44,022 nt of DNA, taken from contig JBDRNY010000068.1 of NCBI GenBank assembly GCA_043810635.1, positions 1-44,022 on the forward strand. Reading direction: 5' to 3'. The notes beneath the pieces were generated by a model. The model made no database searches and was not told the origin of the DNA. It saw only the letters and a list, made by a program, of their open reading frames with translations. The translations under genes were made by a program, and so were the position numbers. Source of the stretch: Candidatus Micrarchaeota archaeon (GTDB lineage: Archaea; Micrarchaeota; Micrarchaeia; Anstonellales; Anstonellaceae). Shown piece by piece: positions 15,385-39,527 of this stretch. Within the stretch, counting starts at the first letter, position 1. Each line of letters starts with the position of its first letter.

Positions 15385-15844
15385 CCCCAACCCTTCTCCA
15401 ATTTTTTACAAATTTTAAAAATAAATCTTTTGGCCCAACCCACAAAACATTGTTTTTTTTCTCAACCCTGAATTCCAGCCCGCGCAATACTGCCTCATCT
15501 TTTTTGTCAAATTTTGCAAAAAACACATTATCTTCAAAAATTCCGCCGTTTGCGTCAAACAATCCCGCCAAAAACGCCGCGGCATAATCATTGTGGTGGC
15601 AGAAAGCATCAATTTCTTTTTCCAGCACTTTTTTCAAAAAAGCAAGATATGCACTGTGGTAAAAAAGCACTTCCCTTCCCCTAACCCGAATTTTTTCGGG
15701 CTCGGCTATTTTATTTGCAATAATATGGGATGAAAAAGCCGCCTGCAGCGCTTTCCCCCCTCTCACACCTATCCCTTCCCCCGCTTTCCGATGCTTCCAA
15801 ATTCCTGCAAGATAAGAAAATTCCGGAGTAAGCTTTATTTTCAG
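15347..15844 (-). CDS. Stand-alone degenerate LAGLIDADG-fold protein
   Basis: Frame is open upstream of the listed GTG to CTG 15844, giving (M)KIKLTPEFSYLAGIW as a first helix and AAFLAGLFDANGGI as a second LAGLIDADG helix. Confidence 0.65.
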   Translation of the reverse strand: MKIKLTPEFSYLAGIWKHRKAGEGIGVRGGKALQAAFSSHIIANKIAEPEKIRVRGREVLFYHSAYLAFLKKVLEKEIDAFCHHNDYAAAFLAGLFDANGGIFEDNVFFAKFDKKDEAVLRGLEFRVEKKNNVLWVGPKDLFLKFVKNWRRVGDDELEGKKALKN

Positions 15845-15940: not shown

Positions 15941-18900
15941 CTACTCGTTGCTGTTCCAATAGTCATCCTTCATCCTGAATATCCTTATCTGCGGGGAATT
16001 ATAAACCAAATCAAACCCTTCCAATTCATCCAAAAAGAATGCGGAGTATACATTTGAATTATAGAATTCTGTGCTCCTGTCTTCCCATCCGCTTACATAC
16101 TGCCCGTTTTCATCAACCCAGCTTTCATCTTTTGTATAATATGCTGTCAATATTATATTCTGCCCTTCCATATACCCCATCCAGTTTGCTTTTTGCAATT
16201 TCAATTTTCCGCTTTCATCTGTTTCATTAAGCCAATAAGTTCTTATCAACATCTGCCCGTTTACAAATTCCTGGGCTGCACAATATTTTGGCTGCGGATT
16301 GGCCTGCCCGCCCACAACCCTTGGTATTCCGTATGCCACTACTCCGTACATTCCCTGGGATTCTGATATTGCGCACGGGCTTTGCTGCTCTTCAGGGGGT
16401 ATAAGCAGCTGCTCCCAAAGATGCTCCATTTCGCATTCAGAATTGCCAGGCCATTTTTCAACAGTTGTTTTATTTGCCCACGCACACCCCAAATAATTAA
16501 GCGCCCCGTATTTTCCGCCCAAAATAATATTTCTTTTGTCTGCCCCATTTCCAAGTATTTCAACATCAATAAGCGCATACCTTGAATCATACTCTCTCAT
16601 AGTCTGCCGCAGAGTTTTCACATCTGAATGCAAAAATGAATTTGCAGTCCTTCCAATCATTTCAAGCGAAGCATGCTCATTTCTCAGCACCGCCCTCCTC
16701 TCCCCGAAGAAGTTAATCCAGTGCCCATAATCCCACCATGAAATAGTCCTTCCTTCTTCCTCCACATTCTCTCCTATCCATTGCATGGAATCAAGCCAAT
16801 AGGGCGCAACAAAACTGCACCTATAGCCTATTGCAATGCCCATATCTGTCGGCACCGGCTTGCCATATTCCAGCCAAAGGGAGCGCCCGCACAATTCCCC
16901 GTTGTAATATACAGAAGGTGTTTTCATTGTCTGCTCCCAATTTTCAATGCTCGGGCATATCGGATTCATCGGGTCAAGCAAGCAATATCTTTCCAGTTTC
17001 GGAAGCACTTCATCCTGGTTGTCATATATCCTCGGCGTAAATGAATTTGCAAGCAATGGCATTGCGCTATATCCATAAGAATTTATGAGCACATCAAACA
17101 ATGGCGTTGTATTCTCTGCCCCGGGCATTTGCAATGCCACTCCATATGCCCCCCCAAATTCGAAAAATACAAGCAATACCACTCCGAGTGCAGCAAGCCT
17201 TTTTCCCCAAAGCACAACTCTCGCTTTTCTCGCCTCACTCTTTTCCTTCTCTTTCTCCCCCTCTCTTGAATAATACCTTTTTATAACAAACCTCACCGCT
17301 CTTTCCAGCATGCCCCAAGTTGCGCATACCAAAAACATCACAGCAACAGCCAAATACATTGTCAGCTTCTGCTTTCCAAAACCTACAAGCACCACCGGCA
17401 CTGCAAATGGAAGAATGATAAGTGCATCAAGTGCCCATGCCCTTCTTTTATATGCAGAATATGCCCAGCTGACAAGCAAAGCAACGCTTCCCCAAAAAAC
17501 AAAAAATGTAAGCAAGCTGTTTCCTTTCTCAACATAACCCAGGGATTCAAAGCCAGCCATCCAGTTCATGAATTTTACAAACAATTCATAAGCAGAATTT
17601 AGAATAACAGTTGAAGCAACATTTACAAGCGCAAAAAATGCGGAAGCAAGGGAATAGAGCCAAATTCCCAAATCCCCCGAAGGGTTGTTAATCGAGCCAA
17701 GAGGCGCCCCTATAAACCCAATCTGGCCGGTGTAATACTGGCTTCCCGGCGCCTGCTCTGCAATAGTTCTGTACAATGGTTCGGTATATGCCCCGAACAA
17801 TACATAAGTGCCTGTCAATTGCTTTATTTCGGCAATATTTTGCGCAAAAGAAAACAATATCAACCCAACAATTCCTGCTATTGCAAGCACCGTAACTCTT
17901 TGCACCAAATCCGCTTTAACTACTATTTCCCTCTCCTTTTCTTCAGTCTTTCTGGACAATCTTATGGTTCCTGCAATTACCATCAGGATTACTGCAACAT
18001 ATACGCCCGAATCCCATTTTAATATATTCGCAAAATTTAGAACAAATCCTCCAATCAGAACAACAATAGAAATCCCAAACAATGCTTTTGGGATTATATC
18101 TTGCTGCAACACTACTGGAAGTTTAATGCCCCCAACAATATTTGTTTTTCCAGAAACGATTCTGCCCAGTGCCCACGGAACCAGAAATGCAAATGTTGGT
18201 ATAAGAATAAACATCACAGTGCTTTTTACCGTGCTTCCGAAAGCTATGCCCCCAAAAATCTGATATATGAAAATAATCAGCCTGCAAATTATCATGAAAA
18301 GAGCAAACATCCCCGCCATATTTGCCATTTTTGCATTTTCTTCATTAGGCTCAACAAAATTCGCAATGCCCATTGCAAATATTGTCAATGTCAAAAAGAA
18401 AAGTGCCAAATCACTCAAATTTGAGCCGAGAAAAGTTGCAAAACATGCAAAAAGCAAAAACAGCATTCCCGCCTGGAATTTTTCATTTTCCACCAGCCCT
18501 TTCACGCTTTCTTTCCAATTTCCCATTCCAAATTTAAACTCCCCTCTTTTTATTGCATATGCAATTGCCGCCATCAACATTGCAATTGCAAATATGTTAT
18601 ATGGTTCGATTTGAAAATCTCCCCCCCTGGAATTTTACAAGCATTATGGGCATAAATGCCGCAAGCCCCGCAGCCAAAAGCCCCACCCTGCGGTTATACA
18701 ATGTTTTGAAAAGAAAGTATGCAAAAAATGCTGCAAGCGCCCCTATAATCGGGGGGTAAACACTGCCGGATTCTATCAATCTATACGGGCTGTATTCCTC
18801 TTCCCCGTTGTAAATTGAAAACCATGAAGCAAGCATATATTTCCAAAGAGGCTGGCCCATATGGCTTGATTCCACTTCAGGATACCATGCAGTGCTGTCA

Positions 18901-19367
18901 TCAAAATAATTATGCCCTTCATATACCACCTGCCTCACGCCATCCAAATAAAAATAAGGGTCCAAATCCATTATCGGTATGCCTGAATTTGAAAAGCCGA
19001 TGGAAAATATTGAGACCATGATAAGCGTAACTAATATGCATATCACTCCCTCCTGCCCCGGCAGCTTGAATTCAAATTTGCTTTTCGGAATTTCAATTGC
19101 CCTATCTTTTATTGCCAAAAACAAGCCAAGCAAAAATACAATCAGCCAATTAACATAAATCAGTAAAGGGGAAAACATTATTCCGATAAAATTTTCAAGC
19201 AGAAAAAGAAAAGGCACCAAAATAATTCCAAAAGCATAGCCAAAAACAATTTTTTCAAACCAATTTACACTTTCATCTTTCCTAAAAACCCACCATGCCC
19301 AGGGCAATCCTGCAATGCCGAAAATTATGGCAACAAGTAATGCAAATGTTTTGTCAAAAACCAGCAC
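15941..19367 (-). CDS. aglB: Oligosaccharyltransferase AglB/STT3, split by one extra base in a G7 run (18621-18627)
   Basis: DLDPYFYL and YPP in the 5' ORF; TIAEQ and SWWDYGHWI in the 3' ORF; deleting one G joins FQGG-DFQIEPYN into one frame of about 1140 aa; SD GGTGA before GTG 19367. Confidence 0.9.
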
Positions 19368-19733: not shown

Positions 19734-21173
19734 ATGAGCAAAATTCTTTTGGTATGCAGCAGCTTTGAAGAAAATACCCTCAGCAAAAACTATTCAAACA
19801 AGGAATGGGTGCAGAATGAAATAGACAAATCCCATTATCCAATCGGAATATCATATCTCCACTCTTATATAGAAAATCAGGGGCATGAAGTAAAAACCCT
19901 ATTCCTAAACACCTACAGCTATGAAATTTGCTATGATGAAGTAAAAAAGGCAGTAAGTGAATTCAAGCCGGATATAGTCGGTTTGCAAATCCTCACGCAG
20001 AACAGAGTGAGCAGCTATCACCTGATAGAATACCTGCGCAAGCACCATCCTGAAATCCATTTAGTTGTTGGCGGAATACATGCAACAGCTATGTATAAGC
20101 AGCTGATAGAAAAATTCCCATATCTTGTAATCGTCATTGGGGAAGGGGAGCTGACTTTCTCCGAATTAATCAAAACATTGGAAAGCAAAACCACTCTGGA
20201 AGATATTGATGGAATTGTATTCAGCAGAAACGGGCAGCTAATCCAAACAAAGCCGCGCCCGCTCATCCATGACCTTGATACGCTTCCATTTCCAAAGCAT
20301 GAGCTATTCTTCACACCAAACCGGACACATAGCTGTGTTCTGACAACCCGCGGTTGCCCCTTCCGCTGCAGTTTTTGTGCATTAGAGCATATCACTAAAA
20401 GAATGCACAGAAAGCGCTCAGTAAAGAATGTAATTGAAGAGATTGAGTTTCTTAAAAACAAATTCCCGCAAATGAAAACAGTCTGGTTACACGACGACAC
20501 ATTTTTCCTTGACAACCAAAGAGTTATTGAATTCTGCAACGAAGTCATAAAAAGAAAGCTAAACTTAGAGCTTGAGTTTGTGGCAAGTGCAAGAATAAAG
20601 CCGGTTTGCGGGGAAATGGTCAAAAAGCTGGAAGAAGCGAATTTTGTGAAAGTGTTGTTTGGATTGGAAAGCGGAACAGATGAAATACTTCTTCGTGCCC
20701 ACAAAAACATAACCCAAAAAGATACAATAGAAACATTCAAGCTGTTTGCAAAAACAAACATTGAAATAACAGCGTTTCTTATAGTCGGCTTGCCTGGGGA
20801 AACTCAGGAAACAATCTACAATACTGCAAACTTCATAAAAAAGCTCCAGAGGATAAACTACCTTTATTACAATGATATCGGGGTTTTGATGGTCTATCCC
20901 GGGACAGAAGTATGCCGGTTTGCAGTAGAGGCAGGGCAAATAACTGATGATTTCTGGCTTACAGACGAATTCGTGCCTTTCTATGAAGTTGAGCATTCAA
21001 AGGAAAAGCTTTTTGAATTTAAGAAAATTCTCTTAGACCATATTTCTCTGGGAAGGATAAACACCTGGAGCGGCTTTCAAAAGCAGTGGAGCATGCTTCC
21101 CCATATTGCAAAATACCTATGGGGGCGAAGGGATAAAGTAGCTCAGAAGGTTGGGGTGGGGGCGCACAAATGA
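19734..21173 (+). CDS. B12-binding domain radical SAM protein (class B methyltransferase-like)
   Basis: YPIGISYL, KPDIVGL, VVGGIHAT, GEGELTF, RGCPFRCSFC (CxxxCxxC), DDTF, GLESG, GLPGET. Confidence 0.92.
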   Translation: MSKILLVCSSFEENTLSKNYSNKEWVQNEIDKSHYPIGISYLHSYIENQGHEVKTLFLNTYSYEICYDEVKKAVSEFKPDIVGLQILTQNRVSSYHLIEYLRKHHPEIHLVVGGIHATAMYKQLIEKFPYLVIVIGEGELTFSELIKTLESKTTLEDIDGIVFSRNGQLIQTKPRPLIHDLDTLPFPKHELFFTPNRTHSCVLTTRGCPFRCSFCALEHITKRMHRKRSVKNVIEEIEFLKNKFPQMKTVWLHDDTFFLDNQRVIEFCNEVIKRKLNLELEFVASARIKPVCGEMVKKLEEANFVKVLFGLESGTDEILLRAHKNITQKDTIETFKLFAKTNIEITAFLIVGLPGETQETIYNTANFIKKLQRINYLYYNDIGVLMVYPGTEVCRFAVEAGQITDDFWLTDEFVPFYEVEHSKEKLFEFKKILLDHISLGRINTWSGFQKQWSMLPHIAKYLWGRRDKVAQKVGVGAHK

Positions 21174-21361
21174 AATACAAAATTGAATTTGACTGGGATA
21201 AATGCATCGGATGCGAAAGCTGCTGCTCTATCTGCGATAACTGGCAGATGAAAGGCGCGAAAGCCGCGCCAAAACAAACTGAGTTGGAAGAAATCGGCTG
21301 CAACAAAGAAGCAGAGCAATACTGCCCGGTAGGGGCAATAAAGATACTAAAAAATGAATAG
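21170..21361 (+). CDS. Small monocluster ferredoxin
   Basis: CIGCESCCSIC and YCPVGAI; ATGA-type overlap with the radical SAM stop. Confidence 0.88.
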   Translation: MKYKIEFDWDKCIGCESCCSICDNWQMKGAKAAPKQTELEEIGCNKEAEQYCPVGAIKILKNE

Positions 21362-21365
21362 AAAG

Positions 21366-22259
21366 CTAATATCTGTCCGCTTTCAGCTTTTCAATATCCA
21401 GCTTTCCCTTATTCTCGCTATAATATCTGCACAATTCCCTTATTCCCTCCTCAATCGGGGTAAATTCCAGCCCTTTTATTTCCTCCCTCAACCTTGAATT
21501 ATCCCCCGTATATTCCCTTCCCATCCCGGGGTTGCTCACTTTAATTTCCAGGCTTTTTCCAGTAACTTCATTTATTTTTTTTGCAATTGAAAGCAAATCA
21601 ACCGGCTTATCCGGAGTTGCATTGTAAAATTTGTACCTTCCCCTGTTTTCAATAAAATATTTCACAATCTTTACAAAATCATCAATATACAAATAATCAA
21701 AGAAAACATTCTTGTTTGCAATTGACATGGGCAGGTCAAATGCAGCTTTTGCACAATTGTTTGAAATAAATCTAGTTTCATAATCTTCATATTTGCCATA
21801 ACATCCGAACATTCTCAGGCAAACAATATCTTCCTCCGCATTTTCAATATATTTTGAGCAAACATATTTGTAAAATCCATAATCATCTGCAGGCAGGTGC
21901 TTTCCAAAATACTCCTCATCCATCTTCGGATTGCTGTGCAGTTTTGAATATTCTGCCCCAGAGCCGCATTGTATCATCTTTTTCCAGTATTTTTTGCATT
22001 TTATTATGTTGAAAAACATCCTCAAATTCTTTTCAGCCAAATTTTCCACTTTTACTTTTCTGCTTCCCCCGATACTGGCACAATGAAATACAGCATCAAC
22101 CGGATTTTTTTCAAAATATTTTTCAACAGCTTCGCTGTCCAGCAAATCCAATTCCTTGCGTGATGGTGCGACTATTTCATATTCTTTCCCCGCCTGCTCA
22201 ATAAAATTTTTGCCGTTAAAGCCCGAGCCGCCTGATACAAATATTTTCTTTTTTCCCAT
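21366..22259 (-). CDS. NAD-dependent NDP-sugar reductase/epimerase (YerF or CDP-dideoxyhexose synthase-like)
   Basis: GGSGFNG Rossmann motif, YGFYK catalytic motif, FDYLYIDD; directly downstream of rfbH. Confidence 0.85.
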   Translation of the reverse strand: MGKKKIFVSGGSGFNGKNFIEQAGKEYEIVAPSRKELDLLDSEAVEKYFEKNPVDAVFHCASIGGSRKVKVENLAEKNLRMFFNIIKCKKYWKKMIQCGSGAEYSKLHSNPKMDEEYFGKHLPADDYGFYKYVCSKYIENAEEDIVCLRMFGCYGKYEDYETRFISNNCAKAAFDLPMSIANKNVFFDYLYIDDFVKIVKYFIENRGRYKFYNATPDKPVDLLSIAKKINEVTGKSLEIKVSNPGMGREYTGDNSRLREEIKGLEFTPIEEGIRELCRYYSENKGKLDIEKLKADRY

Positions 22260-23579
22260 CTATTTCCCCCTCTTTTTCAAAAATTTCCCAAAGCATTCTC
22301 CGACATACTCCTTCATTCCCCCGCGCAATCCAGGGTACACCCCAATCCAGAATGCATTGTCCATTATCATATCTGCACCATTCAGCTCCCCCACCACTCT
22401 TTTTTCTATGCCGATATATGCCGGCTGCTTTGTGATATTCCCCCCAAAAACCATTCTTGTTGCAATATTCTTTCCTTCCAAATATTGCACAATGTCATTT
22501 CTGGAAAATGGCGCATCTTTCCGCACTGTTAGCGCAAATCCAAAAGGGGAGGGATTTGCCTTTTTCTCCTTCCTCGGAAATATGAAATATTCCCCGTATT
22601 CATTCAGGTTTTTCATATACCATTCAAAATTTTCCCTTCTTTTTTCAATAAATATATCCAATTTCCCCAATTGCGCTAGGCCTATCGCAGCCTGCATATC
22701 TGTTGCCTTCAAATTATACCCGATATTTGAGTAAATATACTTGTGGTCATATCCATACGGCAGTTCCCCCAATTTCCACTTAAACCTCTTTTTGCAGCTG
22801 TCTGCTTTTCCCGGAGCACACCAGCAATCCCTTCCCCAATCCCTAAAAGAATTCACGGCTTTGTTCAGCAAAGCATTTGAGGTAAGCACTGCCCCCCCTT
22901 CCCCGGTTGTTATATGATGTGCCGGGTAAAAGCTGGCTGTTGCCAGCTCCCCAAACATTCCTACTTTCTTTCCATCCCACTCCGCCCCAATAGCGTCACA
23001 GCAGTCTTCAATTAAAAATAAATTGTTTTTTTTGCAAATTTCGGATATTTTGTCGATGTTGAAAGGGTTTCCCAATGTATGCGCAATCATTATTCCTTTT
23101 GTTTTTTCACTCACTGCCTCCTCCAGCATCCCGCAGTTTATATTATATGTCCCCACTTCTGTATCCAAAAATACCGGCACACACCCGGCCTGCAAAATCG
23201 GATTTACTGTTGTCGGAAAGCCTGACGCAGTTGTAATTATTTCATCCCCTTTTCCCAGCCTTTTCTCCCCCGCATGTTCTGGCAAAAATGCGCTTAATGC
23301 AAGCAAATTTGCGGAAGAGCCGGAATTTGCCATAGAGCAATGCTTATGCCCCCACCACTTTGCCATTTCTTTTTCAAATTTTTCATGATATCTTCCTGCA
23401 GTAAGCCAAAAATCAAGGGAGGAATCCACCAAATTAACAATTTCCTTTTCATCATACACCCTTGCGGCATAAGGAATTTTCCCCCCCTTTTTCCACATTT
23501 TGGGCATATGGGCTGCCTTGTAATATTCTTTTGCAAGCTCCAGAATCTTAGCTCTCAGGTCCGCCTCGTCTTTTTTCAT
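22260..23579 (-). CDS. rfbH: CDP-4-keto-6-deoxyglucose 3-dehydratase E1 (RfbH/DdhC)
   Basis: DFWLTAGR, NSGSSANL, EDCCDA, SFYPAHHITTGEGG (His in place of Lys), RDCWC...SC Fe-S ligands, YDHKY. Confidence 0.95.
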   Translation of the reverse strand: MKKDEADLRAKILELAKEYYKAAHMPKMWKKGGKIPYAARVYDEKEIVNLVDSSLDFWLTAGRYHEKFEKEMAKWWGHKHCSMANSGSSANLLALSAFLPEHAGEKRLGKGDEIITTASGFPTTVNPILQAGCVPVFLDTEVGTYNINCGMLEEAVSEKTKGIMIAHTLGNPFNIDKISEICKKNNLFLIEDCCDAIGAEWDGKKVGMFGELATASFYPAHHITTGEGGAVLTSNALLNKAVNSFRDWGRDCWCAPGKADSCKKRFKWKLGELPYGYDHKYIYSNIGYNLKATDMQAAIGLAQLGKLDIFIEKRRENFEWYMKNLNEYGEYFIFPRKEKKANPSPFGFALTVRKDAPFSRNDIVQYLEGKNIATRMVFGGNITKQPAYIGIEKRVVGELNGADMIMDNAFWIGVYPGLRGGMKEYVGECFGKFLKKRGK

Positions 23580-23619
23580 AGTTTTATTAAGCCGTTGAAT
23601 AATTAAAATACTTGGCGCG

Positions 23620-23653
23620 GGAAATCCAACGCCTTCAGGCGTGGGTGATTCAC
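23620..23653 (+). mobile_element. Solo IS200/IS605-family right-end remnant
   Basis: GGAAATCCAACGCC-TTCA-GGCGTGGGTGATTCAC: subterminal hairpin ending in TCAC; no tnpA/tnpB nearby. Confidence 0.6.
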
Positions 23654-23746
23654 AATAGCTTCCTATATTCTCGTTAATTTCAGAGATTTGAGCCGCAAAG
23701 GATAAAATATCTTGCGCTCATATTAAATGTTATATGGTGAGCAGGC

Positions 23747-25513
23747 ATGAAACTTTCTGACTATATTGTAGACTACCTAACTCAGGCAGGAATAAAACAC
23801 GGGTTTTTTATGATAGGCGGGGCCCTTGGCCATATAGCAGATTCCTGCGCCCTCAAAAAATTCAAGCTCTATACAATGCATCATGAGCAGGCGGCAGCCT
23901 TTGCAGCCGAGGGGCAGGCAGCTGCCACCCAAAAGCCGGGGCTTGCAATGGCAACCAGCGGGCCCGGGGCGACAAACCTGATAACCGGAATAGGGAGCGC
24001 TTATTATGCATCCACCCCGACAGTTTTCATAACCGGGCAGGTAAATACTTTTGAATCAAACATAGGCGGAAAACGCAGGCAGGTCGGATTTCAGGAAACA
24101 GACATTGTATCAATAATCAGGCCGATAACCAAATATGCCATGACAATATCTGACCCCGGAAAAGTATGCTATGAGCTTGAAAAAGCGGTTTTTTTGGCAA
24201 CGCACGGGCGCAACGGGCCGGTGCTGATTGATTTCCCCCTTGATGTGCAGAGGGCCGACATATCCCCCGCCAAACAGGAGCATTTTACAGGCTCAAAAGA
24301 GCACAACGAGCTCTCCAAAAAAAAACAGATAACAAAACAGGAGCTGGACACATTTTCCACCCTGCTCTCAAACTCTGAGCGGCCGATGATTTTGGCCGGC
24401 CACGGGGTTCGCCTGTCCAAAGCCCGTGACGAGCTGCGCAAATTTGCAGAAAAAACCAAAATTCCGGTTGTTGCCTCTCTCATGGGGACAGACAGCCTGC
24501 CAAGCCACCACCCCCTCTATTACGGTTTTATAGGCACATATGGCGGAAGGCATGCAAACTTTGCGCTTGCAAATGCTGACCTCATAATTGTGTTTGGAGC
24601 AAGGCTGGACTCGCGCCAGATTGGAGTTCAGGCATTAAAATTTGCGCCGGCGGCAAAAATAATTCACATAGATATAGATTCAAGCGAATTGGGGGCGTCT
24701 GTAAAAGAAGAGCTTTCCATAAATGCAGACATAAAAGAATTCCTTTCACAGGCTCTTGCGATTCTGCCGGGCATGAAACCCGGCAATGGATGGAAAAGCC
24801 ATCTAAAATGGCTGAAGGAAAAATACGGAACCCAAAATCAGGATGCTGGCAGGCAGGCAATAAACCCTGTCACGGCACTTGGTGCAGTTTCAAAAGCTGC
24901 CAAGGAAGAAAGCTTTGTCAGTGTTGATGTCGGTGCCCACCAGATGTGGTTTGCACAGGCATGGCAGGTGAAAAAAAACCAGACTATTTTTACAAACGGG
25001 GGAATGGGCCCGATGGGCTGCGCAATCCCCACCGCAATCGGCGCCTGGCTTTCTGACAAATCCAAATCTGCCTGGGCTGTTTGCGGCGATGGCGGCTTTC
25101 AGCTGAATATCCAGGAATTGCAGACAATTGTAAGGAACAACATCCCCTTAAAAATCATAATACTAAACAACAAGTCATTGGGGATGCTGACTCAGTTTCA
25201 GTCGGAGAATTTTGAGGGGAGGCTTATAGGAAGCATGGACGGGTATGACACCCCTGATTTTGTAAAAGTTTCAAATGCATATAAAATACCTGCCAAAAGG
25301 GCAGAGCACCCTGATGAGCTTGAGGAAAAAATCAGCTGGCTTGCCAATGAGGAAAACGCCGCAGTTTTGGAAATAATAATTCCAAATACATTCTGGACAT
25401 TTCCAAAAGCAACCTATTCCAAGCCAGTCTATGACATGAAGCCGTATTTAACAGATGAAGAAATGCAAAATGCCCTAAAATATGTTTGGGAGGCGTGTTC
25501 CAAAAAGAAATAA
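23747..25513 (+). CDS. ThDP-dependent acetolactate synthase-like enzyme, YerE-like sugar carboligase candidate
   Basis: HHEQAAAFAA, TSGPGATN, GFQETDI, GDGGFQLNIQEL...NN; sits among rfbF/G/H with no ilvN/ilvC neighbours. Confidence 0.88.
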   Translation: MKLSDYIVDYLTQAGIKHGFFMIGGALGHIADSCALKKFKLYTMHHEQAAAFAAEGQAAATQKPGLAMATSGPGATNLITGIGSAYYASTPTVFITGQVNTFESNIGGKRRQVGFQETDIVSIIRPITKYAMTISDPGKVCYELEKAVFLATHGRNGPVLIDFPLDVQRADISPAKQEHFTGSKEHNELSKKKQITKQELDTFSTLLSNSERPMILAGHGVRLSKARDELRKFAEKTKIPVVASLMGTDSLPSHHPLYYGFIGTYGGRHANFALANADLIIVFGARLDSRQIGVQALKFAPAAKIIHIDIDSSELGASVKEELSINADIKEFLSQALAILPGMKPGNGWKSHLKWLKEKYGTQNQDAGRQAINPVTALGAVSKAAKEESFVSVDVGAHQMWFAQAWQVKKNQTIFTNGGMGPMGCAIPTAIGAWLSDKSKSAWAVCGDGGFQLNIQELQTIVRNNIPLKIIILNNKSLGMLTQFQSENFEGRLIGSMDGYDTPDFVKVSNAYKIPAKRAEHPDELEEKISWLANEENAAVLEIIIPNTFWTFPKATYSKPVYDMKPYLTDEEMQNALKYVWEACSKKK

Positions 25514-25523
25514 CTTACCTGTT

Positions 25524-26522
25524 TTAATTCCTTTTCACTTTCATCGCTTTATCAACCGCAACTTTTGCAAGCGGCCAAATAATAAATGTAAAATATGATG
25601 CCAAAAACAGGACATCTGCAAGAAATACAATCTTAACCGAAGGATAACACGCCAGGGCAATTCCGCATTTTCCCCTGCACACATCCCCTTTATTTTGGCT
25701 TACTGCCCGCACTGCCTGCCTCAAAGACGCCCACGCAGTAGTCTCAAGCATCTTCGCGCGCAACTTTTCGTTCAGCGCATTTTTTTCAACAAAAGAATCA
25801 AACAATTTATGTATCATGCTATATTGTTCAGTCAGCAAAATCCCCCTGTCATATATCAGGCCTGTCCCGCTGCTTCCATGTATCCTGTAGCTTGAAGTGC
25901 TCTCCGAATTATATGCCCCGCCCCATTTGTACACAATTTTCAGCCACATCTGATAATCACAGGGTCCTGGATACTGCGGGTCGTACTCACCCACCTCATC
26001 CTGCACTTTCATTCTAACCATAACTGTGCAAACCGGAGTAATATCCCTTTTAATATATTCAGAAAATAATTCCCGCGCAGAAATGGCCCTCGATTCCCCC
26101 GAATAAGCATTTATTGCCGGGATTTTATGCGCCCGCCCATCAGAACCAATATTTCTGAACCTGCAAAAGCTCATCCCTGCCCCCGGATTTTTCTCCAAAA
26201 GCGCAACCGAGCTTGACAAAAATTTCTCATCCCACAAATCATCTGCGTGCAAATATGCAATATATTTGCCTTCAGCCTCACGCAAGCCCGCATTCAAATT
26301 GCCGACATATCCAATATTTCTCTCATGCTCAATGAGCCTAAATCGCGCATCTCCCAAAATAAATCCGCGTATTTTGGCAACTGTATCATCCGTGGATTTA
26401 TTGTCCAAAATAAGGCATTCAAAATCCTCAAAATCCTGATTCTTGATGCTTCTAAGCGTATCCAAAATATATTCGGAGCCGTTTCTCTCAGGCACTATAA
26501 CTGACACTTTAGGCTTAGCCAT
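25524..26522 (-). CDS. Glycosyltransferase family 2
   Basis: VSVIVP, LDNKSTD, YLHADD, CDYQMWLK. Confidence 0.9.
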   Translation of the reverse strand: MAKPKVSVIVPERNGSEYILDTLRSIKNQDFEDFECLILDNKSTDDTVAKIRGFILGDARFRLIEHERNIGYVGNLNAGLREAEGKYIAYLHADDLWDEKFLSSSVALLEKNPGAGMSFCRFRNIGSDGRAHKIPAINAYSGESRAISARELFSEYIKRDITPVCTVMVRMKVQDEVGEYDPQYPGPCDYQMWLKIVYKWGGAYNSESTSSYRIHGSSGTGLIYDRGILLTEQYSMIHKLFDSFVEKNALNEKLRAKMLETTAWASLRQAVRAVSQNKGDVCRGKCGIALACYPSVKIVFLADVLFLASYFTFIIWPLAKVAVDKAMKVKRN

Positions 26523-26639
26523 ATTATCCTCTATTTTTGTACTGGTTTAATAGTTTATTGGCTTCCAAAACCTTTAAATACGCTATTTTACATATTATAT
26601 AACCTATAATCTATGCTCAATCAATAAAAGGTCTTGGCA

Positions 26640-27443
26640 ATGAATAACTTTATGGATGAAGTAAATAAATGGCCTGTGGTTATACTCTGTGGCGGGAAAG
26701 GCACTCGTTTGCGCGAGGAGACTGAGTTTAAGCCAAAACCCATGGTGGAAGTGGGGGGCCAGCCAATCCTTGTTCACATAATGAAGATTTATGCCAAATA
26801 CGGCCAAAAACGCTTTATTTTGGCCCTGGGCTATAAAGGGGAGTTGATAAAGGAATATTTCCATTCCCGGGACATATTGGATCACGACATAACCCTCAAT
26901 CTTGCAGACCGCTCACAGGACAAAATACACACAAACCCCTCAAGGAAATTTGACTGGGAGGTAACGTTTGCCGACACCGGCCTTGAGGCATCAACAGGCG
27001 CGCGCATAAAAAAAGTTGAAAAATATATTGACACCGACAATTTCTTTGTAACCTATGGTGACGGGCTTGCCGACATTGACATCTCATCCCTTGCCAAATT
27101 CCATATTGAGCAAAAAACCATTGCCACTCTCTCGGGTGTGCGCCCGCCCTCAAGGTTCGGGCTTTTGGAAATTGATGATACAAAAGTAAAAAAATTCAGG
27201 GAAAAGCCATTGATTGAAGAGTATGTAAATGGAGGTTTTTATGTATTTCACAAAAATGTCCTCTCCCGCCTCTCAGCTGACGATTCCTGCAGCCTTGAAA
27301 AAGAGCCGCTTTCAAAGCTTGCGCTTGACGGCGAGCTTTCAATTTACAAGCACAACAGCTTCTGGCATATGATGGACAATTACAAAGATTATTTGGATCT
27401 GAACAAAATGTGGGACAGCGGAAAGGCGAAATGGAAGGTGTAG
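26640..27443 (+). CDS. rfbF: Glucose-1-phosphate cytidylyltransferase
   Basis: ILCGGKGTRLREETEFKPKPMV, TYGDGLAD, VNGGF, FWHMMD, WDSGKAKWKV. Confidence 0.94.
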   Translation: MNNFMDEVNKWPVVILCGGKGTRLREETEFKPKPMVEVGGQPILVHIMKIYAKYGQKRFILALGYKGELIKEYFHSRDILDHDITLNLADRSQDKIHTNPSRKFDWEVTFADTGLEASTGARIKKVEKYIDTDNFFVTYGDGLADIDISSLAKFHIEQKTIATLSGVRPPSRFGLLEIDDTKVKKFREKPLIEEYVNGGFYVFHKNVLSRLSADDSCSLEKEPLSKLALDGELSIYKHNSFWHMMDNYKDYLDLNKMWDSGKAKWKV

Positions 27444-28504
27444 AATTGTCTGATTTTTCCGAATTTTTTAATGGCAAGAAAGTTTTGGTTACCGGGCATA
27501 CCGGGTTTAAGGGAAGCTGGCTTTGCATGATGCTGGATATTTTCGGGGCAAAAATTTTCGGCTATGCCCTGGAGCCGAATACTGAGCCTGATTTGTATTC
27601 TGCTTTGAAATTAAGGAAAAAGCTAAGCAAGGAAAAAATTGCAGATATTGGGAATTATGGAGAAGTAAGGAAATTTTTTGAAGAAACTAAGCCCGAAATT
27701 GTAATTCATCTCGCTGCGCAGCCGCTTGTAAGGGACAGCTATGACGACCCTCTCTATACTTATGAAACAAATGTAATCGGCACTGCCAATGTTTTGCAGG
27801 CTGTAAAAGAAGTCGGCGGTGTTGAGGCGGCAGTTATTATTACAACCGACAAAGTTTATGAGGATAAGGAAAAGGACGGGGGCTATAAAGAAAATGACGA
27901 GCTTGGAGGGCATGAGCCATACAGCGCATCAAAAGTGTGCGCAGAATTTGTAACCAAATCATATATTCGCTCATTTTTTAATTTAGAAAAAAACCCAAAT
28001 GCTCCAAGAGTGGCAACCGCAAGGGCGGGAAATGTAATCGGGGGCGGAGACTGGTCAAAAGACAGGCTTGTGCCAGATATTATAAAAGCAAAGCAAAAAG
28101 GCAAGAAGCTGAGGTTGAGAAATCCTGATGCCATACGCCCCTGGCAGCATGTTTTAGAGCCAAATTTTGGATATTTGCTGCTTGCAAAAGCATTGTATGA
28201 GAAAAAGAAAAATATTTCTGCAACCTATAATTTTGCTTCTGAAGAAAAGAATTTTGTTACTGTAAAAGAAATTGCACAAAAATCAGGGGCAGAATTTGAA
28301 ATCCTGCCTGATGAAAAAAAACACGAGGCTAAGATGCTGAAATTAGATGCAAGCAAAGCAAAAGAGGAGCTTGGCTGGGCGCCTAAAATTGGAATCGAAA
28401 AAGCGCTTGAGATGACTTTTGAATGGTATGATAAGTATTATTCAAAAAATGCAGATATGGCTGAATTTACCCAGGGGCAGATTAATAATTATTTTGAAAA
28501 GTAA
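27431..28504 (+). CDS. rfbG: CDP-glucose 4,6-dehydratase
   Basis: TGHTGFKGSWL, HLAAQPLVRDSY, TTDKVY, PYSASK, RAGNVIGGGDW, RPWQHVLEP. Confidence 0.96.
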   Translation: MEGVELSDFSEFFNGKKVLVTGHTGFKGSWLCMMLDIFGAKIFGYALEPNTEPDLYSALKLRKKLSKEKIADIGNYGEVRKFFEETKPEIVIHLAAQPLVRDSYDDPLYTYETNVIGTANVLQAVKEVGGVEAAVIITTDKVYEDKEKDGGYKENDELGGHEPYSASKVCAEFVTKSYIRSFFNLEKNPNAPRVATARAGNVIGGGDWSKDRLVPDIIKAKQKGKKLRLRNPDAIRPWQHVLEPNFGYLLLAKALYEKKKNISATYNFASEEKNFVTVKEIAQKSGAEFEILPDEKKHEAKMLKLDASKAKEELGWAPKIGIEKALEMTFEWYDKYYSKNADMAEFTQGQINNYFEK

Positions 28505-29676
28505 GAAGAAATTGTGTTAATTACATAGTTCAATTCTTTTTCTCTTAAATGCTGGTGTATTCCAATATAAAATGCTTTTTTGTTCAAATTTGCAGCAACA
28601 GGGTATTTTGATTCTATTTTTCCAAACATTTTCTCATACACCGGCTGGTTTATGAGGGGAAGCAATTGCCTTGTTTCAATCCCCCTTTCTTCCAAATACA
28701 ATGTCAATTTATCCCTGTCCACCTCTCCTTTGCAAACAATGGGGTAAAACATAAACACATGCTCCCTGTCCGGAGGGGTTGTTGGCAATTGCAAATATTT
28801 ATCCAATTTTTCCAATCCATTAGTAAGCATTTTCGCATTTTCCTTTCTTTTTTTCAAAATTTCCTCTCTTCTCTCAAATTGCGCATGGGCCAGCGCCCCT
28901 TCAAATTCAGTAACCCTGAAAGAATAGCCCAATCTCACAAATTTGAACCTTCTTCCCATAACTGTTTGCAATTCCTCTTTTTTCAAATTATCATCATCAT
29001 CTATTGACAAATAAATAGAATCCCTTCCATGGTTGCACAAGCTTCTCATCATTACAGCCAATTCCTCGTCATTTGTAATATTAACTCCCCCGACACCGCT
29101 CACCAAAATATGCGCAACATAGGTGGAAAAGCATCCCACATCCCCAAAACAGCCGACCGGCTTTCCTTTGTATTTTGCAAACATTGTTTCGCAAGAATCT
29201 TCAATCACTTTCAAATTATTTTTTATTGCAAATTCCAGTATTGCATCCATATCACAGGGCAAGCCCGCAATATGCACCGGTATTATTGCCCTTGTTTTTT
29301 CAGTAAAATGCTTTTCCAACTCCTTTGGATTCATGTTGTATGTTTCTGGCTCCACATCCACAAAAACAGGCTTCAAATTATTCATTATCACAACATTTGA
29401 AGTGGCAATAAAAGTAATCGCAGGCACCAGTACTTCATCCCCGTCTTTCCATCCATATTTTTCTTTTAATGCGGCAATCGCAACCCTTAATGCAGATGTG
29501 CCGCTGTTGCTCATAATTCCGTATCTGCACCCGTGCGCCTCTGCAAACTCTTTTTCAAATTTTTTGGTAAAAGGGCCGTATGAAATTCTTTTTGTTTCCA
29601 GTACTTTATTCACATACTCTCTTTCCTTTTCCCCCAAATCCGCAAATCCAACCGGCACTTGAACTTTTTCTTCCAT
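28489..29676 (-). CDS. DegT-family PLP enzyme, ColD-like GDP-4-keto-6-deoxymannose 3-dehydratase candidate
   Basis: NSGTSAL, IEDSCE, FSTYVAHILVSGVGG with His where aminotransferases have the Schiff-base Lys; no Fe-S Cys motif; downstream of gmd and fcl. Confidence 0.8.
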   Translation of the reverse strand: MEEKVQVPVGFADLGEKEREYVNKVLETKRISYGPFTKKFEKEFAEAHGCRYGIMSNSGTSALRVAIAALKEKYGWKDGDEVLVPAITFIATSNVVIMNNLKPVFVDVEPETYNMNPKELEKHFTEKTRAIIPVHIAGLPCDMDAILEFAIKNNLKVIEDSCETMFAKYKGKPVGCFGDVGCFSTYVAHILVSGVGGVNITNDEELAVMMRSLCNHGRDSIYLSIDDDDNLKKEELQTVMGRRFKFVRLGYSFRVTEFEGALAHAQFERREEILKKRKENAKMLTNGLEKLDKYLQLPTTPPDREHVFMFYPIVCKGEVDRDKLTLYLEERGIETRQLLPLINQPVYEKMFGKIESKYPVAANLNKKAFYIGIHQHLREKELNYVINTISSYFSK

Positions 29677-29736
29677 AAAAATTACCTTTTTCCAATACCT
29701 CAATATCCAATCCCGCCGCTTACTCGCAACGCCTGC

Positions 29737-30687
29737 CTATTTCCCCACAACCTCCCCTTTATTTTCCATATACCATTCAATAGTTTTTTTCAACCCTTCA
29801 TTAAATTTCACTTTTGCCTCAAAACCAAATAATTTTTTTGCCTTGGAAGAATCAAATAATCTCCTCGGCTGCCCGTTTGGCTTGCTCGTATCCCATTTAA
29901 TCTCTCCCTCATAACCAATTTCTTTTGAGACAATTTCAGCCAATTTTTTAATTGAAATTTCCTCTCCGCTTCCAATATTTACCGCTTCCCCGCTTTCCAA
30001 TTTTTCTGCAGCCATCACAATTGCCCTTGCAGCATCATCAACATATAAAAATTCCCTTGTAGGGCTTCCATCCCCCCACAACACAACCTCTCCCTTCCCC
30101 TCTTCTTTTGCCTTGTCAAATTTATACACCATTGCCCCGATTACATGCGAATCCTTGTCATTAAAATGATCTCCAGGCCCGTACAAATTTACTTGCAATA
30201 AATACACACCATCAAATCCATACTGCTCCCTATATGCCTGCAATTGCACCAGCATCATCTTTTTTGCCATTCCGTAAGGGGCATTAGTTTCTTCAGGATA
30301 CCCATCCCAAAGCATTTCCTCTTTTGTCGGAGTTTTTACAATTTTCGGGTATGCACAAACCGAGCCGATTCCAACAAATTTTTTCACTTTTGCCAAATAA
30401 GAATAATGCACTATCAAATTATTCATCATCGCATTTTCATAATAAACGCTTCCGGGATTTTTCCTGTTATATTCAATCCCGCCCACTCTTGCAGCCGCAT
30501 GTATAACAACATCTGGCTTATATTTTTCAAAAAGCTTTTTCACATCCCCCTCTTTTACCAAATTATACTCCTTCCTCTTCGGAGCAATTATCTCTTTCGC
30601 CCCCTTGTTCTCCAGCATTTTAATTAAGGGTTTTCCCAAAAATCCGTGCCCGCCTGTTACCAATATTGTTTTATCTTTCAAATCCAT
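29737..30687 (-). CDS. fcl: GDP-L-fucose synthase family (Fcl/ColC-like)
   Basis: GGHGFLG, AARVGGI, GSVCAYPK, YGMAK, NLYGPGD, WGDGSPTREFLYVDD, KPNGQPRR. Confidence 0.93.
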   Translation of the reverse strand: MDLKDKTILVTGGHGFLGKPLIKMLENKGAKEIIAPKRKEYNLVKEGDVKKLFEKYKPDVVIHAAARVGGIEYNRKNPGSVYYENAMMNNLIVHYSYLAKVKKFVGIGSVCAYPKIVKTPTKEEMLWDGYPEETNAPYGMAKKMMLVQLQAYREQYGFDGVYLLQVNLYGPGDHFNDKDSHVIGAMVYKFDKAKEEGKGEVVLWGDGSPTREFLYVDDAARAIVMAAEKLESGEAVNIGSGEEISIKKLAEIVSKEIGYEGEIKWDTSKPNGQPRRLFDSSKAKKLFGFEAKVKFNEGLKKTIEWYMENKGEVVGK

Positions 30688-30813
30688 TTCCACCACAAAC
30701 ACAAAAATTTATTCCAAGCCCGCATCGCACCCGATTCAAAATCTTTCAAATCTGTTCCAACCACAAACACAGCAAATCTATACTGCAAATCCGCACTCGC
30801 CGCATCATTATGC

Positions 30814-31803
30814 TTAATCCAGTCCTTCCAATCCTTCGGCTTTCATATCAGCATCAAGCATTATTTTTGCCAATTCCTTGAATTTCACTTTTGACTCCCA
30901 TCCAAGCACTTTTTTTGCCTTCCCCGCATCCCCGATTAAATTTTCCACTTCAGCAGGGCGATAATACTTTTTGTCAATTTTCACATATTTCTCCCAATCC
31001 ATTCCCGCAAGCCCAAAGCATTCTTGCACAAACTCTTTTACTGAATGATTTTCCCCTGTTGCAAGTACAAACTCTTCCGCCTTTTTATGCTGCATTATTC
31101 TATACATTCCTTCAACATATTCGGGCGCATAGCCCCAGTCTCGTTTTGCATCCAAATTTCCCAAATACAAACATTTGTCTTTTCCCGCCTTTATTCTTGC
31201 AACCCCCCGAGTTATTTTTCGGGTAACAAATGTCTCACCCCTCCTCGGGGATTCGTGGTTGAATAATATTCCGTTTGATGCAAATATATCATATGCTTCG
31301 CGATAATTTACAGTAAGGTAAAATGCATATGCTTTTGCGCATGCATAAGGCGAGCGGGGGTGGAACTGAGTTTCCTCATTTTGCGGCGCGGGCGCAGAGC
31401 CGTATAATTCAGAAGAAGATGCCTGGTAAAATTTCACTTTCTTTTTCATCCTCCTAACAGCTTCCAATATTCTGACAGTGCCCAACCCCGTAACATTTCC
31501 AGTATATTCTGGTATATCAAACGAAACCCGCACATGAGATTGCGCGCCCAGATGATATACTTCATCTGGCTGGCTCTGCTCCATTACTTTCCATACAGAA
31601 GAGCTGTCATCCAAATCAGCATAATGCAAAAACAATCTTGCCCCTTTTTCATGCGGATCCTGGAATATATGGTCTATTCTTGAGGTGTTAAATGTAGAAG
31701 CCCTTCTTATGATGCCATGCACTTCATACCCTTTTCCCAGCAACAGCTCTGCAAGATATGAGCCGTCCTGGCCTGTTATTCCTGTAATTAAAGCCTTTTT
31801 CAT
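30814..31803 (-). CDS. gmd: GDP-mannose 4,6-dehydratase
   Basis: [58 protein letters not shown]. Confidence 0.97.
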
Positions 31804-31840: not shown

Positions 31841-32947
31841 TTACCTGCTTTTCCCAACCTTCTCCTCGATTTCCCTGAATATCTCTTTAAACCTCTTCTG
31901 ATAGGTATGCTCTTTCAAACATCTCTTCTTCCCCGCATCTGCAATCCTCTTCCTTTCCCCCTCATTTTCAATATAATATTCTGCTTTTTTTGCCAAATCT
32001 TCCAAATCCTTATACATAACAATCTCTTTCCCTTCTTCAAAATAATCCCCCAATTCCTCAACATGCCCAGCCAGCTGAAACCCCCCGCATGCCGCAACTT
32101 CAAAAAACCTTGATTTCATCTGCCTTGGGGCAAAAAGAATTGAAGAATCTGCAGGGCTTATCATAATTTTTGCATTTGCAAAAACATCTACCATTTGCTG
32201 GTGTTCCACTCTTCCCCCTTCCCATCCAGAGCCAAACGCTTTCACATCCAGCCCTCTCCCCCTCAATAATTCAACAATCTTCCCCCTTCCTCCGTATTTC
32301 TGGCCTACAAACCCAATATCAACATCTTTTCCAAACTCCCCCTTCACCCCAAACCTCGGCTCATAAACTCCCCATTGCGTATGTATTACATTCCCATACC
32401 CCAGCTCCTGGTATTTCCCCACCGCTTCCTTGTCTGTTGTGGTGCAAAAATTAAACGCCCCTGCCCAATAATTTGTAAATGATGCAAACCTCCACTGGTC
32501 ATCTGCAAACCAATTCATTGTAATTGCAGGGCTTTCCTCGCTTATTTTTCTAATAACATTTCTGTCAAAATCATCCACCATCAGGGAAAATATCATCAAA
32601 TCATATTCCCCTTCCTTTGCAACCTTTTCCAAATATTTATGCATCTCCCCCTTTCCATTCTTCCTTTTATATTTCCTAAAATCAAAAACATCGCATTTTA
32701 CAATATCTTTTATTGCGGGATAAATGTTAGCATATTCATAAGAATCTCCCCATTCCTCTCTCCCGTATTCATGCCTGTTTAAGCAAAACAGCACTTTCTT
32801 TATTTTCTCCGGCTTTTCCACCCTCACTTTCGGAGGATTTATTTTCGCAACTCCCGCCCCCTTCCTCAGATTAAACAATGCATCATAACCCAAATACCTT
32901 GCCCCTTTTGCATAATGCTTCACACTTCTAACAATTTCCATCATCAA
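31841..32947 (-). CDS. CgeB-like glycosyltransferase (Glyco_trans_1_2)
   Basis: NWFADDQWRF, DIGFVG, MKSRFFEVAACGGFQL, EHTYQKR. Confidence 0.85.
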   Translation of the reverse strand: MMMEIVRSVKHYAKGARYLGYDALFNLRKGAGVAKINPPKVRVEKPEKIKKVLFCLNRHEYGREEWGDSYEYANIYPAIKDIVKCDVFDFRKYKRKNGKGEMHKYLEKVAKEGEYDLMIFSLMVDDFDRNVIRKISEESPAITMNWFADDQWRFASFTNYWAGAFNFCTTTDKEAVGKYQELGYGNVIHTQWGVYEPRFGVKGEFGKDVDIGFVGQKYGGRGKIVELLRGRGLDVKAFGSGWEGGRVEHQQMVDVFANAKIMISPADSSILFAPRQMKSRFFEVAACGGFQLAGHVEELGDYFEEGKEIVMYKDLEDLAKKAEYYIENEGERKRIADAGKKRCLKEHTYQKRFKEIFREIEEKVGKSR

Positions 32948-38139: not shown

Positions 38140-38218
38140 GGCATAATATATCATAACCAGCTTATATTAATGTTTGATTTTAAGGCAAAAAAAAAAAATT
38201 TATGTGTTATGTGATTTT

Positions 38219-39511: not shown

Positions 39512-39527
39512 TTTTGAGGTTGATAAT

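Follow-up and report, generated by a model that had tools for sequence, protein, structure and literature searches.

Gene content of the locus

We analyzed a stretch of DNA, hereafter the window, which comprises 44,022 nucleotides (positions 1 to 44,022, forward strand) of contig JBDRNY010000068.1 from a Candidatus Micrarchaeota archaeon (GCA_043810635.1), and which carries a gene cluster that probably makes a yersiniose-type branched-chain sugar for a surface glycan. In Yersinia pseudotuberculosis lipopolysaccharide (LPS), the corresponding sugar is a two-carbon-branched 3,6-dideoxyhexose, made as CDP-yersiniose by DdhA, DdhB and DdhC together with YerE and YerF. The genome behind the window amounts to 1.11 Mb on 89 contigs, of which the window is contig C68, and is 82% complete. 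Open reading frame (ORF) listing and family scans delimit a single unbroken glycan locus at about 14.5-37.2 kb of the window, and its closest named homologues are found in Micrarchaeota and Aenigmarchaeota genomes. All of the genes named in a preliminary description of this DNA, namely RfbF, RfbG, an E1-type RfbH, a thiamine diphosphate (ThDP)-dependent enzyme resembling acetohydroxyacid synthase (AHAS), a short-chain dehydrogenase/reductase (SDR), a B12-binding radical S-adenosylmethionine (SAM) enzyme and a ferredoxin, with aglB nearby, are present with strong family support. The central part of the locus reads as follows.

19734-21173, plus strand: B12-binding radical SAM enzyme, 479 aa (PF02310 80.4 bits, PF04055 84.5 bits), with CX3CX2C at 208-215
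21170-21361, plus strand: ferredoxin of the single-cluster 4Fe-4S type, 63 aa, with CIGCESC...CP (Fer4_15 22.6 bits, cut-off 22.4)
21366-22259, minus strand: extended SDR, 297 aa, here called SDR297 (PF01370 89.4 bits)
22260-23579, minus strand: RfbH/DdhC, E1-type CDP-4-keto-6-deoxyglucose 3-dehydrase (NF011936 666.1 bits, cut-off 423)
23747-25513, plus strand: putative YerE-like ThDP-dependent carboligase, 588 aa, with the three ThDP domains PF02776, PF00205 and PF02775
25524-26522, minus strand: GT2 glycosyltransferase between the ThDP gene and rfbF (PF00535 102 bits)
26634-27443, plus strand: RfbF/DdhA glucose-1-phosphate cytidylyltransferase (TIGR02623 292.1 bits, just below the 300.25 cut-off); the start codon is uncertain, as the family match starts at residue 15
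27410-28504, plus strand: RfbG/DdhB CDP-glucose 4,6-dehydratase (TIGR02622 440.7 bits, cut-off 278.45)

The ThDP-dependent enzyme is YerE-like

By name, AHAS models top the NCBIfam matches of the ThDP enzyme, though it stays below every AHAS cut-off (452.4 bits for TIGR00118, where the cut-off is 538.35). Among five other genomes with a homologue, true AHAS scored 679-852 bits and the YerE-like copies 474-537 bits. The best match in the PDB is 5ahk, at 347.5 bits against 299.5 bits for the best AHAS, a plant enzyme, and a profile built from 16 sequences of the clade likewise ranks 5ahk first (582.8 bits, compared with 473.4 for plant AHAS). The 5ahk protein, which we take to be YerE of Pseudomonas protegens (PpYerE), bears the title 'acetolactate synthase II, large subunit' in its own entry and aligns end to end with the window enzyme.

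A maximum-likelihood tree was computed by a quick LG+G4 search from 65 of 114 sequences, 8 duplicates and 41 further bacterial rows having been removed beforehand. In this tree the window enzyme falls within a 52-row clade (SH-aLRT 100) that stands apart from the seven true AHAS. When the eight-row archaeal subclade that contains the window enzyme was forced together with the AHAS, the likelihood was 77 lnL units worse (p-AU 0.029), in an approximately unbiased (AU) test that is weakened by the group having been named after the tree was seen. The active-site columns separate the two families as well. At the position of an AHAS Trp, 86 of 93 clade rows have Phe (F484 in the window) and six of seven true AHAS have Trp; at the position of an AHAS Arg, 91 of 93 clade rows have Gln (Q412 in the window) and all seven true AHAS have Arg. 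Presumably these Trp and Arg residues recognise the 2-ketoacid acceptor of AHAS, so their loss from the ThDP enzyme fits a different acceptor. The cofactor motif GDG...NN (G447-D448-G449 and N474-N475) is invariant throughout the alignment, including the window enzyme.

The preliminary description had held that its reading would fall if the enzyme grouped with true AHAS in a genome with a full ilv pathway. The enzyme instead sits in a clade of its own, the genome has no second paralogue of it, and ilvC, ilvD and ilvN gave no match above cut-off in the 82%-complete assembly. Judged by these comparisons, the enzyme is YerE-like and not an AHAS, and carboligation onto the C4 ketone of a sugar is predicted.

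Characterised members of the family, including YpYerE, ErwE and JanthE, are covered in a 2025 review, an excerpt of which describes donors that vary widely, from C2 to C8 (PMC12247030). The review discusses V479 of PpYerE with regard to stereoselectivity (PMC12247030); this residue aligns with L481 of the window enzyme, within a local motif that reads GMLTQFQ in the window and GMVRGFQ in PpYerE. According to excerpts of two papers, JanthE (8rph) and ErwE belong to the same ketone-accepting subclass of the ThDP decarboxylase superfamily (PMC12247030, PMC12188165). JanthE is more distant from the window enzyme (262 bits with the protein, 419 bits with the clade profile) and has a CDG motif where the window enzyme keeps GDG. 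Donor-synthesis genes lie beside erwE, and none such are present in the window cluster.

Distribution of the gene cluster

In a scan of species-representative genomes, at least 553 of 598 candidate stretches were confirmed as relatives; the counts for genome loci given here refer to the best 80. Gene clusters of YerE-like enzymes were reportedly surveyed by Krug et al. in 2024. Many bacterial phyla are represented among the best 80 relatives, and archaea by five: two of Micrarchaeota type and one each from Methanotrichaceae, Methanoregula and 'Methanobacteriota'. Of these 80 loci, 65 have RfbH, 64 RfbF and 65 RfbG no more than 10 kb from the ThDP gene, and many of the loci without RfbF, RfbG and RfbH are short contigs. 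An SDR-family gene lies within 400 bp of the ThDP gene in 55 of the 72 loci that have at least 1.3 kb on both sides, so the pairing of ThDP enzyme and reductase that is expected of a YerE/YerF-type step is common. The best SDR match in those 55 loci is RfbG itself in 10, the SDR297 type in 11 and another SDR in 34; orthologues of the SDR297 type (at least 38% identity) occur in 15 of the 80 genome loci.

Within the phylum of the window, seven of 400 other sampled genomes encode an orthologue of the ThDP enzyme at 53-64% identity, and four more have only a relative at 37-38%, which represents a second sugar-linked subclade in the tree ('type 2'). Ten stretches were fetched from the phylum: an RfbH homologue above 50% identity is present in six, an SDR297 orthologue (41-64% identity) in six, and AglB directly beside the ThDP gene in two, both of the same genus.

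Several loci carry two sugar-linked ThDP enzymes (L099, G195:C70, 7369-14897; L106, G335:C46, 9195-12786; L008, 9998-14494). These combine a type 1 enzyme with a divergent type 2 enzyme, about 36% identical to the window enzyme, or have two type 2 enzymes in tandem, and they share the same RfbF/G/H and SDR genes.

The preliminary description had suggested a possibly new sugar on archaeal N-glycans, with no such characterised archaeal pathway known to its author. The literature searches that we ran found neither a 3,6-dideoxy nor a carbon-branched sugar reported for an archaeal glycan; the claim of novelty was nonetheless overstated, as relatives in this gene context are widespread among bacteria and also recur in archaea.

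RfbH and its electron supply

RfbH matches the Yersinia E1 (PDB 3bcx) over its full length (E 7.1e-148), with 58% of the E1-like residues visibly aligned. The His of 'YPAHH' (218-222) is kept and aligns with the residue altered in the H220K entry 3bb8, and the protein carries the cysteines C194-X57-C252-X-C254-X7-C262. The spacing C-X57-C-X-C-X7-C corresponds to the 2Fe-2S motif published for E1, and the Yersinia enzyme shares both the His and these four cysteines. By its family score, the His that replaces the pyridoxal phosphate (PLP) lysine and the four-Cys motif, RfbH is assigned as a true E1.

E1 normally requires the E3 reductase DdhD, and needs one-electron input. The preliminary description had pointed to the lack of DdhD in the window, and indeed no gene for a fused protein of Fer2 and ferredoxin-NADP reductase (FNR) domains, as in DdhD-type E3, was found in the window or the genome by searches with PF00175 and PF00111. 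The lack is not special, however, as 79 of 90 YerE-like loci are without an E3-like reductase. A hidden Markov model (HMM) built from in-cluster FNR-like ORFs detects an FNR/E3-like ORF in only 11 of the 90, seven of these ORFs being about 345 aa long and four about 230-243 aa.

Elsewhere in the genome, contig C25 encodes one FNR-like flavoprotein (237 aa, FAD_binding_6 and NAD_binding_1, no Fer2) and contig C26 one plant-type 2Fe-2S (Fer2) ferredoxin of 93 aa, both in housekeeping contexts. The two proteins would together make up the two halves of E3 and might serve E1. The C25 gene was also considered as a dedicated E3 and dropped, its neighbours being KaiC-like and V-ATPase genes. In four bacterial YerE-like clusters (L008, 9286-9972; L060; L076; L079), a short FNR-like reductase of 228-243 aa without a 2Fe-2S domain lies between rfbH and the ThDP gene, and has the same architecture as the unlinked C25 protein. 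SpnQ-type 3-dehydrases, which draw on general cellular ferredoxin/flavodoxin reductase systems, are similarly E1-like enzymes without a dedicated in-cluster E3; SpnQ serves a TDP-2,6-dideoxy sugar in a secondary-metabolite cluster, whereas here the probable substrate is a CDP sugar destined for a surface glycan.

A second deoxysugar module and the remainder of the locus

Downstream of rfbG, the locus continues with a second set of sugar-nucleotide genes and further glycosyltransferases, as follows.

28489-29703, minus strand: DegT-family enzyme, candidate ColD-like 3-dehydratase, in which His replaces the PLP lysine and the Fe-S Cys motif is absent
29737-30702, minus strand: Fcl/ColC-like SDR, resembling GDP-fucose synthase (NF047922 302 bits, below the 500 cut-off)
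30814-31803, minus strand: GMD, GDP-mannose 4,6-dehydratase (TIGR01472 508.6 bits, cut-off 415)
31841-32947, minus strand: Glyco_trans_1_2 glycosyltransferase (family scan)
32944-34008, minus strand: GT10-like glycosyltransferase (family scan)
Between the GT10-like gene and the GT4 gene: 336-aa ORF without a Pfam or NCBIfam match
35080-36249, plus strand: GT4 glycosyltransferase (family scan)
36309-37211, plus strand: further SDR/epimerase (family scan)

The DegT enzyme has His in place of the PLP lysine (YVAHIL) in all four aligned orthologues and lacks the Fe-S cysteines of E1. Against solved relatives it scores 197 bits for aminotransferases, 187 bits for E1 and 145 bits for ColD. The module of GMD, Fcl-like SDR and DegT gene is kept at 66-80% identity in three related genomes (G122, G374 and G229). 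From its gene content it looks like a colitose-type GDP-3,6-dideoxyhexose route, and it probably yields a GDP-4-keto-3,6-dideoxyhexose. As in the GDP-colitose pathway (GMD, ColD, ColC), a GMD is combined with a His-type DegT enzyme without the Fe-S motif and an Fcl-like SDR; unlike in that pathway, the DegT enzyme is nearer to aminotransferases and E1 than to ColD.

The GT2 glycosyltransferase at 25524-26522 has a 48%-identical orthologue that adjoins RfbF in G122, and the glycosyltransferases at 31841-34008 have orthologues on the flanks of the radical SAM gene, both in G122 and in metagenome loci. Straight after the glycan locus, 37213-40700 encodes a PfkB-family kinase, an S-adenosylhomocysteine hydrolase and a SAM synthetase (MetK, 532.6 bits), so that SAM-cycle genes adjoin a SAM-consuming cluster.

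The radical SAM enzyme and its ferredoxin

The ferredoxin start codon overlaps the stop codon of the radical SAM gene by 4 bp (ATGA). Similarly, in G122, which is of the same genus, a radical SAM orthologue (60% identity) is followed by an overlapping ferredoxin ORF (51%). There the pair is flanked by the GT10/Glyco_trans_1_2 genes on one side and GMD on the other, and RfbG, RfbF and the GT2 gene share its contig, with RfbH, the ThDP gene and AglB on a different contig. G374 has a radical SAM orthologue (56-58%) beside GMD, Fcl and a His-type DegT gene, together with a second B12 radical SAM gene whose start is overlapped by a ferredoxin-like ORF; the 20 kb examined there contain neither an E1 nor a ThDP gene. 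A homologue of the ferredoxin is present in none of the 90 YerE-like loci, and an orthologue of the radical SAM enzyme in none of the 80 genome loci, where three matches are only 28-29% identical. The preliminary description had assigned the ferredoxin to E1 in place of DdhD. This proposal finds no support in a ferredoxin that is coupled to the radical SAM gene, travels with it in G122, pairs with one in G374 away from any nearby E1 or ThDP gene, and is missing from all 90 YerE-like loci; the simplest reading of these data is that it reduces the cluster of the radical SAM enzyme. A fused ferredoxin in some radical SAM homologues was also considered and dropped, as none of the 120 homologues listed has one.

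No NCBIfam model matches the radical SAM enzyme above cut-off. Its nearest solved structures are OxsB (105 bits) and CysS (86 bits), with TokK also among them, and it shares with these class B enzymes an N-terminal B12-binding domain and a radical SAM core with CX3CX2C. It differs from them in belonging to no curated family above cut-off and in that its own family occurs in glycan clusters, with an FkbM-type methyltransferase domain fused in three of the 120 homologues listed. Among the matches listed, homologues of 49-65% identity come from Micrarchaeota, 'Burarchaeum', candidate-phyla bacteria, Elusimicrobia, Omnitrophica and Methanoregula. One of five genomes behind YerE-like loci has a match, at only 33%, and none of 401 sampled genomes of the phylum around G406 has one at E 1e-120. 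Of 80 metagenome loci listed, about a dozen have an orthologue at least 38% identical, the rest belonging to other B12 radical SAM families. The following are examples.

L134: radical SAM orthologue (53%) with RfbF/G, ThDP enzyme and RfbH
L139: radical SAM orthologue (44%) with RfbF/G, ThDP enzyme, His-type DegT gene and Fcl-like gene
L135 and L136: radical SAM orthologue with GMD and Fcl
L138: radical SAM orthologue beside a GT10-like gene

In informative metagenome loci the orthologue always lies amid glycan genes, and the enzyme is therefore read as a putative glycan-tailoring enzyme. Its orthologues occur as often with the GDP-sugar module as with the CDP/ThDP module, and to methylate the yersiniose-type sugar is one of several possible roles. 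In G122, the radical SAM-ferredoxin pair is followed by a gene for a 412-aa fusion of a PNP_UDP_1 nucleosidase/phosphorylase and a phosphoribosyltransferase (L130, G122:C10, 11101-12339). The PNP_UDP_1 Pfam family includes nucleosidases that clear 5'-deoxyadenosine, a by-product of radical SAM enzymes.

AglB and the upstream part of the locus

The other end of the locus is occupied by the aglB region, as follows.

14557-15390, minus strand: GT2 glycosyltransferase (family scan)
15347-15766: 139-aa ORF between the GT2 gene and AglB, with a weak LAGLIDADG_3 match (E 8.8e-4, below the Pfam cut-off)
15941-18580, minus strand: C-terminal ORF of AglB, 879 aa (PF22627 32.5 bits), with WWDYG at residue 615
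18597-19367, minus strand: N-terminal ORF of AglB, 256 aa (PF02516 29.6 bits), with a DLD motif

The two AglB ORFs differ in frame and are separated by 16 nt, with a run of seven G, near 18620-18626, shortly before the stop of the N-terminal ORF. The C-terminal ORF is 52% identical to residues 421-1070 of the AglB of G196, and the genome has this one AglB match only. A conserved two-gene form of AglB was considered and dropped, as in the same-genus genomes G196 and G122 the protein is encoded by one ORF, of 1070 and 1085 aa, respectively. The break (18580-18630) may be a true frameshift or may stem from misassembly at the homopolymer.

A proposed pathway

From the gene identities, the placement of the ThDP enzyme and the genomic context, we infer the following chemical steps, donor, electron route and linkage. 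RfbF would form CDP-glucose, which RfbG would convert to CDP-4-keto-6-deoxyglucose. The E1-type RfbH, with pyridoxamine phosphate (PMP) and a 2Fe-2S cluster, would remove the 3-hydroxyl to give CDP-4-keto-3,6-dideoxyglucose, its electrons most likely coming from reductases encoded elsewhere in the genome (the C25 FNR-like protein and the C26 2Fe-2S ferredoxin). The YerE-like enzyme would then decarboxylate a 2-oxo acid and transfer the resulting acyl anion to C4. As genes for making a donor are absent, that acid is most likely pyruvate. SDR297, the candidate reductase of the acyl branch in a YerF-like role, would reduce the branch carbonyl to a yersiniose-type 4-C-branched 3,6-dideoxyhexose. 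Local glycosyltransferases would put the branched sugar into a lipid-linked glycan, which AglB would transfer to protein. The 4Fe-4S ferredoxin would act as reductant of the B12 radical SAM enzyme, the two genes forming a mobile cassette that would tailor some sugar of the glycan, probably by C-methylation.

The core of this proposal, a CDP-3,6-dideoxy-4-ketohexose handed to a YerE-like carboligase and a partner reductase within a glycan locus beside AglB, had already been advanced in the preliminary description, and the family matches, the clade and the gene context bear it out. The same enzyme families are clustered in the CDP-yersiniose A pathway of Y. pseudotuberculosis: a cytidylyltransferase, a 4,6-dehydratase, an E1, an AHAS-like ThDP enzyme and an adjacent NAD(P)-type reductase. 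In contrast to that system, the window has no fused E3 gene, the host is an archaeon, the locus lies beside AglB rather than being an LPS O-antigen locus, and the ThDP enzyme belongs to a separate archaeal subclade; the likeness of this enzyme to YerE is drawn through PDB 5ahk. Taken together, the data make it likely that this is a DPANN-type surface-glycan locus for a yersiniose-type branched sugar, with the ferredoxin paired to the radical SAM enzyme.

Several observations weigh against this interpretation. Two phylum loci with 53%-identical ThDP enzymes (L102, L103) have no RfbF, RfbG, RfbH or sugar genes in the stretch examined. SDR297 has only remote PDB matches (RmlD and GDP-fucose synthase, E about 1e-8), and its role is read from adjacency. 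The ThDP enzyme is tied to characterised enzymes through 5ahk, whose identity as PpYerE is assumed, and JanthE scores below plant AHAS on the clade profile (419 compared with 473 bits). Ferredoxin homologues stand beside radical SAM genes only in the phylum relatives L130 and L131; none was found beside the closer metagenome radical SAM orthologues, and one further metagenome locus, L198, has a regular-expression motif match only. Just 5 bp separate the ferredoxin gene from the SDR-RfbH pair, and the protein may have a second role in feeding E1. The aglB frame is interrupted, and the donors of characterised relatives range from C2 to C8 in the excerpt cited above (PMC12247030). The pathway as a whole is argued from sequence and context.

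Alternative explanations

That the ThDP enzyme is a genuine AHAS for branched-chain amino acids is very improbable: the naming of its NCBIfam matches speaks for it, and the missed cut-offs, the tree, the absent Trp and Arg, the ilvN, ilvC and ilvD genes not found in the 82%-complete genome, and the surrounding sugar genes all speak against it. More room must be left for a pathway of the right type whose product is not yersiniose, either through a longer or functionalised 2-oxo acid, as with ErwE and JanthE, or through the GDP-4-keto-3,6-dideoxy acceptor that the neighbouring module probably supplies. The wide donor choice reported for characterised enzymes in the review excerpt (PMC12247030) is compatible with this, as is the position of the window enzyme in its own archaeal subclade, 40-46% identical to its bacterial relatives; the cluster, however, has no aldolase, NeuB-like, cupin or aminotransferase gene for a special donor, and the gene context that the family conserves is the CDP module. 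On balance we regard such a product as possible but rather unlikely.

The same degree of doubt attaches to a glycan that is not N-linked, that is, a lipid-linked, O-linked or secreted polysaccharide, with the AglB neighbourhood incidental or AglB defunct. AglB is split by a frame change and is the sole AglB match of the genome, and it adjoins the ThDP gene in only one of the 80 genome loci and two of the 10 phylum loci, all close kin. Yet the catalytic motifs are kept in both halves (WWDYG and DLD), the break lies beside the G7 run and fits an assembly error, and glycan gene clusters adjacent to aglB are usual in archaea. We find it rather unlikely, and a little more so than these last two alternatives, that the local ferredoxin replaces DdhD for E1 and that the radical SAM enzyme methylates the yersiniose-type sugar into a new one. 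In its favour are the closeness of the ferredoxin gene to the SDR-RfbH pair, the one-electron input that E1 wants in a genome where no fused DdhD-type gene was found, and the two metagenome loci L134 (53%) and L139 (44%), which join a radical SAM orthologue to RfbF/G, a ThDP enzyme and a DegT/RfbH-type gene. These are outweighed in our view by the translational coupling of the ferredoxin to the radical SAM gene, with which it moves in G122, the pairing in G374 without E1, the absence of such a ferredoxin from the 90 YerE-like loci and of a radical SAM orthologue from the 80, and the radical SAM orthologues of L131, L135 and L136, which accompany GMD/Fcl/His-DegT modules instead. We accordingly retain the yersiniose-type pathway with a separate radical SAM-ferredoxin pair.

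Implications

The pathway type is already known and the gene set is widespread, so that the window cluster adds an archaeal instance, an incremental gain unless the radical SAM-ferredoxin cassette brings new chemistry. This cassette is the less ordinary element of the cluster. Tentatively, and with considerable doubt, we suggest that the genes for the radical SAM enzyme and its coupled mini-ferredoxin make up a mobile cassette of two that is complete in itself, and that this cassette modifies by radical chemistry a 3,6-dideoxy- or 6-deoxyhexose of surface glycans, in uncultured bacteria as well as in DPANN archaea, with C-methylation of an unactivated carbon as the most likely change. A sugar that carried both this change and the YerE-type branch would be of a type so far undescribed in any organism, and would be the first on an archaeal glycoprotein to be both branched and radical-tailored. 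For annotation, the results suggest that 'acetolactate synthase' genes of DPANN genomes without ilv genes may be read as sugar-branching enzymes. The cell surfaces of DPANN archaea mediate attachment to their hosts, and an unusual sugar there would be of biological interest.

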